Sequence record: MK373784.1
Direction: 5' to 3' (one strand)
DNA from: Escherichia phage vB_EcoM_MM02
DNA length: 64,000 nt
Within the stretch, counting starts at the first letter, position 1. Each line of letters starts with the position of its first letter. The notes beneath the pieces are model-generated. The model searched no databases. It had not been told where the DNA came from and worked only from the letters and a program-made list of their open reading frames with translations. The translations under genes and the position numbers were made by a program. Below, in pieces: positions 12,464 through 43,634 of the stretch.

Positions 12464-12679
12464 TTAAGCCTTTTTATCAAGAACAGAATTCAGTTTATTA
12501 GTAATTTTGTCCAAACGTTCATTGAATTCGCTGGAGGATAAACCCTTTTCTGGAGAAATTAAACTAATCACGAAAAATACACCAGTAAAAGGAATAAGAA
12601 AAATAGCTCCAACTGCCATAAACAAAAAGAACGTTACAGTTGTAAGAAAATCAGCTAAACCTTTACGAAATTTGTACAT
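12464..12679 (-). CDS. Hypothetical small membrane protein
   Basis: 71 aa with one strongly hydrophobic helix. Confidence 0.4.
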   Translation of the reverse strand: MYKFRKGLADFLTTVTFFLFMAVGAIFLIPFTGVFFVISLISPEKGLSSSEFNERLDKITNKLNSVLDKKA

Positions 12680-12789
12680 ATTTACCCTTAATTAACTAAG
12701 CATTGATAATCATTAAACTATATTGCGAATAAAATTCTGGACCAAAACGAAAAATCATATCATTTATAGTATCCATAATGTAATTCAAT

Positions 12790-13260
12790 TTAATCATGTT
12801 TCCACACCCCATCGCTATTTGACCAAAGTCGCTGATTATCTGATCCTCGCCAAAGCTTTTTAGTCGGAAGATTTTTCTCATACTTCCCATCAATAATAAC
12901 ATCAACATATTTAAGCATTTCTAGTTGTTTAATATCTTCAAACTTATATCCTGTCCACAACCAAATGCTTTTATTGGGATAAAGATTTTTTACTGTTTGA
13001 GCAATGCGATGAATAACATCTCGGTTATCAGGATAGAGAGGGTCTCCTCCGGTTATAGTTAATCCTTCTATATAATCATTATTCAAACATTCAATCAATT
13101 GTTCTAGTGTCTCTCCAGTGAATGGAGTACCATTTCTAGCATTCCATGTTGATTTATTATAACACCCTTCACATTTATGCAAACAACCTGTAACGAAAAG
13201 AACGACCCTGCATCCAGGGCCATTCACAAAATCGCAAGGATAAAATCTATCATAATTCAT
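12790..13260 (-). CDS. nrdG: Anaerobic ribonucleotide reductase activating protein NrdG (radical SAM)
   Basis: 156 aa; Cx3Cx2C motif CLHKCEGC; directly downstream of nrdD. Confidence 0.85.
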   Translation of the reverse strand: MNYDRFYPCDFVNGPGCRVVLFVTGCLHKCEGCYNKSTWNARNGTPFTGETLEQLIECLNNDYIEGLTITGGDPLYPDNRDVIHRIAQTVKNLYPNKSIWLWTGYKFEDIKQLEMLKYVDVIIDGKYEKNLPTKKLWRGSDNQRLWSNSDGVWKHD

Positions 13261-15074
13261 TGGTGTTTAACCCTATGCATGATTTCTTTATTTTTACCGA
13301 GATTAAATCCGCGCTCGTTCGGATTTCCCAAATAGCCGCATGTTCTTCTTATAGTGTTCATCTTTTTAGGATCAGTTTCTCCACAAACTGAACAAACAAA
13401 TCCGTTTTCAGTAGGAGTCATCTCATGGGTACTTCCACATGTAAAACATTTATCTACTGGCATATTAACACCAAAATAATCTAAATGTTGTGCAGCATAA
13501 TCCCAGACAGCCTCGAGTCCCTTTAAATTGTTTTTCATATCAGGAAGTTCAACATAAGAAATGTGACCACCTGTCGCAATGAAATGATATGGCGCTTCAC
13601 GAGAAATCTTTTCAAACGGAGTAATATTTTCTTCTACTGAAACATGGAAACTATTAGTGTACCAGCCTTTATCGGTAACATCCTTTACATTTCCATATTT
13701 TTCTGTATCGAGTTTACAGAAGCGATAACAAAGGTTTTCAGCAGGAGTAGAATACAAACTAAAAGCAAATCCAGTTCTTTCGGACCACTGTTTAAGATGA
13801 GCATTCATTTTAGTTAAAATTTCTTGCCCAATATCACGACCGACAAGAATATTCAATTCGTGAATACCAATGTATCCTAAAGACACTGAACTTCTACCGT
13901 TTTTAAATAACTCAATTATGTCGTCATCAGGTTTAAGACGAACCCCGAATGCACCTTCTTGGTAAAGAATAGGAGCAACAGTAGCTTTAACTCCTTTTAA
14001 GGAACTAATTCTACACATCAAAGCTTCAAAACATAAATCCATTCGTTCATTGAATAATTCAACAAATTTCTGTTCGTTAAATTGCGTTCCAATATAAGAA
14101 TCTAACGCGATGCGAGGAAGATTCAATGTTACAACACCAAGATTATTGCGACCATCAAGAATTTCATTACCGGTCGAATCTTTCCATACGCTCAAGAAAC
14201 TACGGCAGCCCATTGGAGAAACAGGAACTGAAGAACCGGTAATAGCTTTATTATTCTTAACCGAAATAATGTCAGGATACATTCTTTTGCTTGCACATTC
14301 TAACGCAAGTTGTTTAATATCATAGTTCGGATCATCTTTATAAAGATTAACACCTTCTTCAACAAACATAACAAGTTTAGGAAAAATAGGAGTTATTCCA
14401 TCACGACCAAGACCTTTAATGCGGTTTTTAAGAATTGCCTTCTGAATCATTCGTTCGGTCCAGTCAGTTCCCGTACCAAATGTAATTGTTACAAAAGGCG
14501 TTTGTCCGTTTGAACTAAAGAGAGTATTTACTTCATATTCATAAGCTTGGAATGCATCGTATACATCTTTTTCTGTTTTGGATTGAGCATAATTCAACGC
14601 ATCAGCGATTTGCCATTTTTCTGCATCCTCAATATGTTTAGCGTATGTGCGTTTAACATAAGGAGAAAGAACTTTATCTACATTCGCAAATGTAGTTCCG
14701 CCATACTGGTGTGAAGCAACTTGTGCGGTAATTTGTGCCATAATTGCAGTAGCAACGCCAATAGATTTAGGCGTTTCAATTTGAGCATTGCCTAATTTAA
14801 ATCCATTCTCAAGCATTCCTTTTAAATCTACTAAACAGCAATTAGTAAAAGGCAATGATATACTGTAATCTAAATCATGAAAATGAATTAATCCAACATT
14901 ATGGGCATTTACAATATGACTTGGAAGAATACGACAAGCGATATGTTTAGAAACAATACCGGCCATTAAATCTCTTTTTGTTGGAAAGACACGAGAATCT
15001 TTGTTGGCGTTTTCGGTATTTAATTCTTTATCTTTATTTGAAATAAAATTTAAAACATCTTTCTCTAAAGACAT
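13257..15074 (-). CDS. nrdD: Anaerobic ribonucleoside-triphosphate reductase NrdD
   Basis: 605 aa; C-terminal Zn-ribbon cysteines and glycyl-radical motif RRTCGYLG; uninterrupted. Confidence 0.9.
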   Translation of the reverse strand: MSLEKDVLNFISNKDKELNTENANKDSRVFPTKRDLMAGIVSKHIACRILPSHIVNAHNVGLIHFHDLDYSISLPFTNCCLVDLKGMLENGFKLGNAQIETPKSIGVATAIMAQITAQVASHQYGGTTFANVDKVLSPYVKRTYAKHIEDAEKWQIADALNYAQSKTEKDVYDAFQAYEYEVNTLFSSNGQTPFVTITFGTGTDWTERMIQKAILKNRIKGLGRDGITPIFPKLVMFVEEGVNLYKDDPNYDIKQLALECASKRMYPDIISVKNNKAITGSSVPVSPMGCRSFLSVWKDSTGNEILDGRNNLGVVTLNLPRIALDSYIGTQFNEQKFVELFNERMDLCFEALMCRISSLKGVKATVAPILYQEGAFGVRLKPDDDIIELFKNGRSSVSLGYIGIHELNILVGRDIGQEILTKMNAHLKQWSERTGFAFSLYSTPAENLCYRFCKLDTEKYGNVKDVTDKGWYTNSFHVSVEENITPFEKISREAPYHFIATGGHISYVELPDMKNNLKGLEAVWDYAAQHLDYFGVNMPVDKCFTCGSTHEMTPTENGFVCSVCGETDPKKMNTIRRTCGYLGNPNERGFNLGKNKEIMHRVKHQ

Positions 15075-15886
15075 AATTCTAATTTATCCTTTTGAAATTC
15101 TTCGTCTAAATATGGGTTCCAACCCATTTTAAACCTTTTGATGAAATTATCAATTCTAAATTTCGGTAAGTTTAAATCCGCAAAAATAGATGATTTACTT
15201 TTAAAATCTGGACCTAAATAATCATATAAAATTTCTGCGTATTTTAACCATAATATACAAGTACCGGATTTAATTGCGTTCGGAGTTTTCCAAGGTTTTA
15301 CACCATACATCGGATTTCCACTTCCTTTATGCCTGATAGAAGATGAAATTCCAATTTTAATTTTAGCTTCCTTTGTATGCGAAAATCCACGATGCGGATT
15401 TTCTTTCCAGTATTTTTTAGAAGCTTCTGATATTTTCTTTCTGGCTAAATTAGTATGATGCTTTCCATAAAATCCATTATTTTTGCCTTTATTACGATTT
15501 CTTTTAATCATGGTTATTGATTGCTTTTCTCTAGTTTCTTTAGAAGGAGAAATACCATATGTCGTAAATTTGCCATCAGCATATGCTAAATTAAAATACT
15601 CTTTATTCCATACATCTTTTTCTATATTCTTTTGAAATTCAGCTTCAATGCTAGTTATTTGTTCATCTCCGACTAATTGAAAATATAATATTTCAACTTT
15701 CGGCGTTTCTTTCAATAAGGCTTTTTGAAATTCGGAAGATGACGAAGACGAATAATAAAATTTACCATTTTTATCAATAATATTCGTTCCATCAAAAGTG
15801 CAATTGGTTTTACTTCCAATGTAATAATATGGTGGGGTTTTAGCATTAATTCTATTAATAAATGATAGTTTATATACTACATTCAT
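15065..15886 (-). CDS. Free-standing GIY-YIG homing endonuclease (Seg-like) with NUMOD3-type repeats
   Basis: N-terminal VVYKL...YYYIGSK pattern; two HTxxAKxKIS-like repeats; overlaps both the gene 49 stop and the nrdD start. Confidence 0.6.
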   Translation of the reverse strand: MNVVYKLSFINRINAKTPPYYYIGSKTNCTFDGTNIIDKNGKFYYSSSSSSEFQKALLKETPKVEILYFQLVGDEQITSIEAEFQKNIEKDVWNKEYFNLAYADGKFTTYGISPSKETREKQSITMIKRNRNKGKNNGFYGKHHTNLARKKISEASKKYWKENPHRGFSHTKEAKIKIGISSSIRHKGSGNPMYGVKPWKTPNAIKSGTCILWLKYAEILYDYLGPDFKSKSSIFADLNLPKFRIDNFIKRFKMGWNPYLDEEFQKDKLELCL

Positions 15887-16356
15887 TTTAAACTCTTTCT
15901 AAGCTGCTTTTTGAATGAAGCTATTAATTGTGTTTTAGTATCAGATTCATTATATTCAAATCCTCTTTGAAGCATCTCAGCCATCATTTCCTCTTTACCT
16001 AGTCTTGAGAACTCTTTAGTTTTGTCTGGAACAAAATTAGGATGGATATTATTATCAGAATAATCTTGTTTCAAATAAGCAAGAAGAGCTTCAAGCCATT
16101 CGAGGTAATCAACGTTTTTACCTTTAAGACCAGAACGGTTGAACTTATGCTTCATTTGGCCTTCTGCTGCGTTGCACAGAGAACAGAGTAACCCACGAAC
16201 TCTACCGGCTTTTGGCCCGTTTAATTCGTGGTCGTGGTCAAGATGGTTACCTTGAACATCAGGGTCTAATTCACGGTGGCAAATAGGACACTTACCATTC
16301 TGTGCATCATAAAATTTTTGTTTTTCTTCTTTATATTTTGCGCCTGATAATAACAT
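15883..16356 (-). CDS. 49: Endonuclease VII (Holliday-junction resolvase) gp49
   Basis: 157 aa; ...KFYDAQNGKCPICHRELDP...HLDHDHELNGPKAG... recognised as T4 gp49. Confidence 0.9.
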   Translation of the reverse strand: MLLSGAKYKEEKQKFYDAQNGKCPICHRELDPDVQGNHLDHDHELNGPKAGRVRGLLCSLCNAAEGQMKHKFNRSGLKGKNVDYLEWLEALLAYLKQDYSDNNIHPNFVPDKTKEFSRLGKEEMMAEMLQRGFEYNESDTKTQLIASFKKQLRKSLK

Positions 16357-16391
16357 GATAAACCCTTACCTTAAATAGATAAGGGTATTTA

Positions 16392-16817
16392 TTAACTTAA
16401 ACGTCTTTCTAAATATTCAATGTATTCTGCGGCTGCTTGCATCAGGTTACCTTCATAGCCGTCGTTATTTTCTTGTCCGGCTAATTTAGCTAATGCATAA
16501 GAAATTCGTTCACCTTCGAATTCACCAAGTTTACTACCTAGCACATCCGCAATATCAGCCGAATCAATTTCTTCGAGTTCATCTATTGAATGGGATTCCC
16601 AGAAGCACCAAAGAGAAGTATCACGGTCATAGATGCAAAGTTTCTCACCTGTGTTCAACATCACTTCAATAATGCCATGGTCGCCATAACCATCTTCGGT
16701 AGTAGTACCAATTACCTTGATGATCGTATCTTTCTTTAATTCAGGAAACTTGACTTGTAGTTCTTCATCTTCTTTAACAATCTTGAACCATTTACCGCGA
16801 GTTTCAGAAATATTCAT
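16392..16817 (-). CDS. Hypothetical acidic protein (T4 pin position)
   Basis: 141-aa ORF immediately upstream of 49. Confidence 0.4.
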   Translation of the reverse strand: MNISETRGKWFKIVKEDEELQVKFPELKKDTIIKVIGTTTEDGYGDHGIIEVMLNTGEKLCIYDRDTSLWCFWESHSIDELEEIDSADIADVLGSKLGEFEGERISYALAKLAGQENNDGYEGNLMQAAAEYIEYLERRLS

Positions 16818-16818
16818 A

Positions 16819-17016
16819 TCAATATTCTCTATAAAAGTTACGATGAGAACGTTTAGCTTTGCGAAGCTGGCGTTTAGTAGGACGAACCGTAAATGGTCGT
16901 CCGGAGAAAAAATTTGGTTCAGTTTTAATCAACACATACCAATCGTGTTCGCCACTTTTTAATAAACGGTATAACAATTTAACTTGCATAATAATCTCTT
17001 CCCATTTCCAAATCAA
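16819..17016 (-). CDS. Hypothetical small basic protein
   Basis: 65-aa ORF with Arg/Lys-rich C-terminus. Confidence 0.3.
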   Translation of the reverse strand: MIWKWEEIIMQVKLLYRLLKSGEHDWYVLIKTEPNFFSGRPFTVRPTKRQLRKAKRSHRNFYREY

Positions 17017-43479: not shown

Positions 43480-43556
<77 letters not shown>

Positions 43557-43559
43557 GAT

Positions 43560-43634
43560 TGGTGACCCTGGCTGGTTTCGATCCAGCTACCTATCAGTTA
43601 TGAGCTGACAGCTCTCCCATTGAGCTACAGGGCC
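43560..43634 (-). tRNA. tRNA with CAT anticodon (Ile2 or Met type), CCA encoded
   Basis: Hand-folded cloverleaf: acceptor GGCCCTG/CAGGGTC, D stem GCTC/GAGC, anticodon loop CTCATAA, T stem GCTGG/CCAGC, 3' ACCA. Confidence 0.7.

Follow-up and report, generated by a model that had tools for sequence, protein, structure and literature searches.

The closest characterized relative of the gene described here is T4 SegG, a free-standing GIY-YIG homing endonuclease that is encoded between genes 59 and 32 and cuts gene 32 of phage T2 (PMC2988022). SegG is experimentally active (PMC2988022, Table 1). Like other Seg enzymes it cuts inside the flanking gene, hundreds of base pairs (bp) from its own gene, and segC, segF and segG are promoter-less cassettes (PMC2988022). 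In the neighbourhood of nrdD, mobC/segH occupies the nrdG/nrdD position (PMC2988022, Table 1), and nrdD of T4 is split by an intron carrying a homing endonuclease (T4 sequence record), I-TevII (PMC2988022). The gene studied here is an open reading frame (ORF) of 273 amino acids at positions 15065-15886, minus strand, of a window of 64,000 nucleotides (nt) from Escherichia phage vB_EcoM_MM02 (MK373784.1). All positions are counted from the first letter of this window. The ORF lies between the conserved genes 49 and nrdD, outside any intron and on the same strand as both. By homology it falls in the clade of T4 SegG and encodes a free-standing GIY-YIG homing endonuclease. The gene belongs to the known seg-type free-standing GIY-YIG endonucleases and is itself uncharacterized: a literature search returned no description of a 49/nrdD endonuclease, no paper naming or characterizing the gene, and no seg names beyond segH.

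T4 SegG shows 40% identity to the product over the first 126 residues (128 alignment columns; BLASTP, E 4e-27; tblastn, E 2e-17). The two proteins share the GIY, YIG, Glu and Asn positions, the absence of the canonical Arg, and an alignable C-terminal domain. Like segG, the gene appears promoter-less, has the orientation of its neighbours, overlaps the upstream gene and stands immediately upstream of its presumed target gene. Unlike SegG, it is found at 49/nrdD instead of 59/32, its presumed target is nrdD, and its product is 63 residues longer, with two NUMOD3 repeats between the catalytic and the C-terminal domains. Identity as a SegG orthologue was rejected, as the locus differs and the true 59/32 copies (P0004 and T4 SegG) are 35-44% identical. 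The GenBank record of phage JK42 labels the ORF 'SegG'; databases otherwise give 'homing endonuclease'. Compared with I-TevI of the T4 td intron (PDB 1LN0/1MK0 and 1I3J), the ORF is not located in an intron, has no equivalent of R27 and shows about 16-21% identity; no zinc finger was detected in it, unlike in I-TevI.

A chance reading frame can be ruled out, because the ORF is present at full length in 48 phage records at 96-99.8% identity, in each case at the same junction, and matches PHROG 7504, 'homing endonuclease', over residues 1-124 (E 1.2e-33). The GIY-YIG-like N-terminus noticed in the first-pass annotation is borne out by motif residues, predicted fold and profile comparison. The catalytic domain comprises residues 1-105 (15572-15886, minus strand), with Y5 in the GIY motif (VVYKL), Y22-I23-G24 in the YIG motif (YYIGS), E81 and N99, and strands are predicted at residues 2-8 and 21-26. 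In an alignment of 23 SegG-like proteins Y5, Y22, G24, E81 and N99 are invariant, Y5 being also more than 90% conserved in an alignment of 40 sequences. E81 and N99 align with E75, the catalytic Glu, and N90 of I-TevI. AlphaFold modelled residues 1-100 with the alpha/beta fold of the catalytic domain at a predicted local distance difference test score (pLDDT) of 95-98. Profile-profile comparison with canonical GIY-YIG/NUMOD3 proteins gave 99% probability. A broad family profile, which itself includes canonical GIY-YIG members, reached the I-TevI catalytic domain at E 1e-8.

After the catalytic domain comes a linker (15296-15514, minus strand), in which two NUMOD3 repeats span residues ~130-153 and 167-179 and a third, partial one residues 188-197. 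Two NUMOD3-like repeats had been quoted earlier; both peptides occur in the translation, and Pfam NUMOD3 (PF07460) matches two stretches with 29.4 bits against a gathering cut-off of 20.4 (E 7.5e-7). With family profiles, the region matched 1I3J, the DNA-binding domain of I-TevI (E 3.6e-6 and 5e-5). In a single-sequence phmmer search of PDB the only match was to the DNA-binding domain of I-TevI, and it was weak (E 0.25). The NUMOD3 stretches are presumed to form minor-groove DNA-binding helices. Residues 198-273 (15068-15295, minus strand) make up a C-terminal domain that is predicted at low confidence (AlphaFold pLDDT 43-58) and presumably provides target-specific DNA binding. It is alignable with the C-terminus of T4 SegG (PWKT ... 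F..GW.P..D.E), the last 75 residues aligning when an insertion is allowed for the two NUMOD3 repeats, and with a 58% identical homologue (P0002) that is also encoded upstream of nrdD. A role of this domain in setting the target fits relatives that have the same catalytic domain and different C-terminal domains at other loci, namely P0003 at gp5/5.1 and P0004 at 59/32, the latter corresponding to SegG.

Several observations weigh against the assignment to the GIY-YIG enzymes. A sequence search with a profile made of SegG-like sequences alone failed to find the catalytic domain of I-TevI, and the top Foldseek match, 1LN0, was non-significant (E 3.6). The Pfam GIY-YIG models (PF01541 and PF19835) gave no match at E <= 10 to the ORF or its N-terminal domain. 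This is uninformative for the ORF because T4 SegG has no Pfam match either and the models do not cover the clade; for annotation, the lesson is that the whole SegG clade is missed by them. No SegG-like sequence, T4 SegG (L005; 1201-1833) included, has an Arg at the position of I-TevI R27, which is catalytically essential in I-TevI and near-invariant in an alignment of canonical GIY-YIG proteins. In place of the Arg, the SegG clade conserves R12, K26, N28, Y44 and S47, and in model and alignment a beta-hairpin-like stretch stands where helix alpha1 would be. Since SegG shares this feature and is reported to be active, the absent Arg is treated as a clade peculiarity rather than as a sign of inactivity.

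The 49/nrdD junction was surveyed in 50,697 phage records, an empty junction being one in which a probe of 61 nt of gene 49 and 240 nt of nrdD is contiguous. The full-length insert was found in 48 records at 96.3-99.8% identity, always at the 49/nrdD junction, and 46 of these copies are intact. An empty junction was found in 643 records. At the empty sites of phages APCEc01, TU01 and T4, gene 49 ends and nrdD begins within one and the same ATGA. The proposal of a mobile seg-type insertion between conserved genes thus agrees with the survey: the ORF is sporadic among relatives and not kept in all of them. Scans of IMG/VR and of Joint Genome Institute (JGI) metagenomes returned three further close copies only.

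The window phage is a Mosigvirus, and its nearest record is phage 55. Backbones of the 48 carriers were typed by the identity of gene 49 over a probe of 544 nt; 13 carriers have a Mosigvirus-type gene 49 (95-98.5%) and 35 a Tequatrovirus-type one (83.5-85%). The window copy of the endonuclease is matched at 99.4-99.6% identity by the copies of FJ1 and Manna, which have Tequatrovirus backbones, and at 96.3-96.7% by those of JM17 and JK42, which have Mosigvirus ones. Endonuclease identity cuts across the backbone split, which shows that the gene was transferred recently between Mosigvirus and Tequatrovirus. The ratio of nonsynonymous to synonymous polymorphism (pN/pS) among six intact copies is 0.05-0.40, and about 0.15 over the whole protein, which indicates constraint on the protein (purifying selection), with the reservation that each pair differs by only 2-20 substitutions.

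The mobile unit extends beyond the ORF. In a block comparison of seven filled and three empty loci, 77 fixed differences separate carriers from non-carriers, all of them in nrdD nt 4-225 and none in nt 226-540. By these differences, the distribution of the allele and its G+C content, the endonuclease-linked allele of nrdD nt 1-225 (codons 1-75; 14850-15074, minus strand) belongs to the mobile cassette. It has the same length as the endonuclease-less allele, to which it is 62% identical in DNA (62-65% for the block), and 28 of the 75 residues differ. Over its first ~175 nt, nrdD is 96-100% identical from carrier to carrier and about 70% identical to that of endonuclease-less phages, those of the same genus included. 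The endonuclease gene is 97-99.8% identical in all carriers of this comparison; between the window and the Tequatrovirus carriers it is 97-99% identical, and nrdD nt 1-174 are 96-100% identical. Gene 49 follows the backbone, with 72-85% identity between the genera and 99-100% to an endonuclease-less Mosigvirus, and backbone-specific sites of gene 49 persist to within ~27 nt of the ATGA. Beyond nrdD nt 225 the haplotypes are mosaic, and Yersinia phage fPS-2 is T4-like by nt 267. Only the 48 carriers and phage OLB35 have an allele with 95% or more identity to the linked one. The ORF (28.6% G+C) and the linked nrdD block (29.3%) are poorer in G+C than the surroundings (35-37%) and than the same segment of the endonuclease-less allele (35.1%), which points to a shared foreign origin of the ORF and the block.

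OLB35 (L020, MH992122.1; 2180-2410) is a Mosigvirus without the endonuclease gene, and its record is flagged UNVERIFIED. Its NrdD starts with MNVVYKLLYFISNKDKEL. The first residues, MNVVYKL, are the first seven codons of the endonuclease fused in frame, and the linked allele is kept from nt 22 to nt 225. This arrangement is read from the sequence as the footprint of a near-complete excision. Other forms show decay. A 1-nt insertion in Pu-Krd-SF3 and SF4 cuts the protein to 245 amino acids. In FL18 (L021, PP400780.1; 2497-3988) the endonuclease gene from nt 1 to about 605 is joined through a microhomology of ~13 nt to the last 15 codons of nrdD, nrdD being deleted. A distant copy was found in a T4-like Logan contig of SRR27536177 (L015; 1718-4712), in which gene 49 is followed by a 55-codon nrdD remnant, an endonuclease homologue and a full nrdD. 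The homologue is 58% identical, lies directly upstream of nrdD and is split by a frameshift or an assembly error. The N-terminus of the downstream NrdD carries the diagnostic residues of the linked allele, and the remnant is the 5' end of a different nrdD, presumably the resident one. As a sequence arrangement, this suggests insertion at about nrdD nt 165.

At the upstream boundary, the ATG of the endonuclease gene occupies the position of the nrdD ATG of empty sites, as seen in the junction alignment. A Shine-Dalgarno-like AAGAG (15893-15897, minus strand) is located 6 nt upstream of the endonuclease ATG, and the alignment of filled and empty junctions shows the identical sequence serving nrdD in endonuclease-less phages. 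A replacement Shine-Dalgarno sequence for nrdD, AAGGA (15087-15091, minus strand), is present inside the 3' end of the endonuclease gene, 12 nt upstream of the nrdD ATG; it is annotated as a ribosome binding site in the record of phage 55 and is conserved in the L015 copy. The case shows an endonuclease gene taking over the translation start of its neighbour and supplying a replacement, with OLB35 showing the escape. No T4 late promoter TATAAATA was found near the ORF, and a scan for sigma-70-like promoters found 10 sites against 9.4 expected, no excess over chance. With no late promoter and no promoter-like site beyond chance, the gene is classed from its sequence as a promoter-less cassette. 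The 'promoter' annotated in the Lutter record was rejected as a prediction that overlaps the endonuclease start. Translation of the endonuclease is probably coupled to that of gene 49 through the ATGA overlap and would use the ribosome binding site that in phages lacking the insert belongs to nrdD. A predicted RNA hairpin at 15040-15140 (minus strand) partly sequesters the new Shine-Dalgarno sequence and the start of nrdD, with a folding free energy of -19.7 kcal/mol and a z-score of -2.64 against shuffled sequences. In this model the hairpin may dampen nrdD translation.

The locus is quite probably a case of intron-less homing by a SegG-clade endonuclease that would cut endonuclease-less phages in the 5' part of nrdD or at the junction, with co-conversion of nrdD nt 1-225. 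The protein would act through its N-terminal GIY-YIG nuclease, two NUMOD3 helices and SegG-like C-terminal DNA-binding domain. On the model of I-TevI and the Seg enzymes, a monomer would bind to a long asymmetric site and cut both strands of the DNA. During mixed infection the endonuclease-less allele would be cut in the first ~225-245 nt of nrdD, or at the 49/nrdD junction, and the break repaired from the co-infecting carrier genome. The 812-nt insert would be copied together with donor nrdD nt 1-225, because outside this stretch homology is regained only within the final few dozen nt of gene 49 and past nrdD nt 225. The linked block would remain indivisible: at 62-65% identity, crossovers are forced outside it wherever the break falls. 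Most likely the cut lies in the 5' region of nrdD, since Seg enzymes cut inside the flanking gene, L015 retains its nrdD remnant, and the fixed differences are densest at nrdD nt 210-225, right next to a perfectly conserved stretch that encodes PFTNCC. The linked allele itself would be immune to cutting.

Some points tell against this account. For the 49/nrdD endonuclease, both homing and cleavage are argued from sequence comparison and analogy. The abrupt end of the block at nt 225 is not necessarily where the cut falls, as a block of 62-65% identity cannot recombine internally. Sandegren et al. are said to have found in 2005 that SegH and Hef also cut their own genomes, and a diverged flank need not confer immunity.

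The place of the cut is the point on which the nearest alternative differs. An active enzyme might recognize and cleave a site that spans the 49/nrdD junction, in the manner of intron-encoded endonucleases, and is destroyed by the insertion, and the diverged nrdD nt 1-225 would then be a passenger from the donor, too different to recombine away. The insert does start immediately behind the shared ATGA, the junction sequence AGAGTTTAAAATGACAATTGAA is confined to empty sites, and the 62-65% identity of the block would explain its indivisibility without an internal cut. The characterized Seg enzymes, SegG included, cut hundreds of bp away inside the flanking gene, however (PMC2988022), and the 55 resident nrdD codons upstream of the L015 endonuclease are easier to obtain with a break at or beyond nrdD nt 165. 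A junction site is a serious alternative, if a rather unlikely one. It is less plausible still that the gene is an inactive or dying remnant, which would persist because the ribosome binding site and start of nrdD lie inside it and most deletions would harm nrdD expression. The position of the nrdD Shine-Dalgarno sequence and ATG within the 3' end of the ORF would agree with this, as would the absence of the canonical Arg and the existence of frameshifted and truncated copies. Such a remnant is hard to reconcile with the 46 intact copies among 48, and the pN/pS of about 0.15 extends across the whole protein, beyond the 3' end. The identity of 96-99.8% across two genera in which gene 49 differs by 15-28% requires recent spread, OLB35 lost the gene in frame and kept nrdD, and active SegG has the same non-canonical set of motifs.

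Purifying selection could also be exerted on a domesticated nuclease or DNA-binding protein that is useful to the phage, in competitor exclusion or in regulation of the nrdD-nrdG operon, and is not selfish. The position of the gene at the head of the nrdD-nrdG unit and the predicted hairpin over the nrdD Shine-Dalgarno sequence and AUG (z -2.64) could be taken in favour, and homing endonucleases do cause marker exclusion (PMC2988022). The gene is nevertheless absent from about 93% of related records and was lost or has decayed in several lineages. Marker exclusion is a by-product of homing and calls for no separate mechanism, and a regulatory site is without evidence. Domestication is held to be very improbable. 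Intron-less homing by the SegG-clade endonuclease could be extended to a stronger form, in which the endonuclease and a foreign segment of 75 NrdD codons rewrite the N-terminus of NrdD with each homing event in the two genera. Selection might then favour the segment as cargo, because it confers immunity or gives the reductase a functionally different N-terminus, and the SegG clade might catalyse without the canonical Arg. This form is considered speculative and is doubted.

If nrdD is the target, as presumed, the gene is a further seg-type endonuclease directed at the ribonucleotide reductase genes of T-even phages. To those who study homing endonucleases nothing here would come as a surprise; the value of the gene is a tidy natural series in public genomes, in which the site is empty, filled on two genus backbones, frameshifted, truncated, and excised with a footprint. 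The series fixes the co-inherited block to the nucleotide and offers substrates for mapping the cut site and for assaying immunity of the linked allele.

Other endonuclease genes are present around nrdD. Phage fPS-2 (L008/L011) has three, namely the seg at 49/nrdD, an endonuclease in an nrdD intron and a seg at nrdD/nrdG. In FL18 a complete seg of 276 amino acids, whose N-terminus has a canonical GIY-YIG motif, follows the truncated endonuclease gene, at the nrdD/nrdG position. The nrdD/nrdG seg of fPS-2, g076c, is given as 244 amino acids, and its annotated start is apparently late in comparison with the FL18 ORF. The resemblance of the 49/nrdD gene to segH/mobC is one of position, both being seg-type endonucleases tied to the anaerobic reductase operon, and fPS-2 and FL18 have a GIY-YIG seg at the segH/mobC position. 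That seg has a canonical GIY-YIG N-terminus and resembles the 49/nrdD ORF in the NUMOD3 region only (E 0.006). SegH is a candidate identity for it. For the 49/nrdD ORF itself SegH was rejected, as the ORF lies upstream of nrdD, not between nrdD and nrdG, and has little similarity to the seg at nrdD/nrdG. I-TevII targets nrdD, the presumed target of the 49/nrdD ORF as well, and coexists with this ORF in fPS-2; it differs in being encoded in an intron ~546 nt into nrdD, the nrdD of the window being intron-less.

Within the window, the details of the locus are as the first-pass annotation had given them. The 273-amino-acid ORF is present on the minus strand, and both of the overlaps claimed for it were recovered. 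Its ATG (15886-15884) overlaps the gene 49 TGA (15885-15883), the plus strand reading tcat at 15883-15886 and the coding strand ATGA; in empty sites the same ATGA joins the gene 49 stop to the nrdD start. The ORF stop (15065-15067) and the nrdD ATG (15074-15072) give an overlap of 10 nt. Gene 49 (endonuclease VII; 15883-16356, minus strand) was identified as the upstream flank by Pfam, with the variable-site table and identity bins tracing it by backbone; its product matches Endonuclease_7 (E 5e-20) and Endonuc-dimeris (E 2.5e-32), the T4 dimerisation domain. The flanking gene and presumed target nrdD (13257-15074, minus strand) is one unbroken ORF of 605 amino acids, whose product matches the Pfam NRDD family PF13597 (E 3.6e-171). 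It is uninterrupted, as had been noted in contrast to the split nrdD of T4, and an Rfam scan of 12500-16900 found no intron and no other RNA family. The gene nrdG (12790-13260) directly follows nrdD.

Some further features were recorded in the survey. An additional ORF of 180 nt is present between pin and gene 49 in some Mosigviruses, as in TU01 (L002; 1605-1784), and accounts for a length class of about 200 bp in the junction survey; the window phage and APCEc01 are without it. No alternative junction insert was found in NC-G or KAW3E185, the former being without nrdD and the latter having an nrdD intron instead. In phage NC-G, a Dhakavirus (L013; 3540-5000), gene 49 is followed by small ORFs and a glutaredoxin gene, and both nrdD and nrdG are absent. 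The label 'endolysin' on nrdD of phage Killian (L009, OQ446694.1; 3822-5639) is an annotation error. The 64-kb window contains two tRNA genes only, Arg-tct and Met-cat, in the region 43480-43634 on the minus strand.

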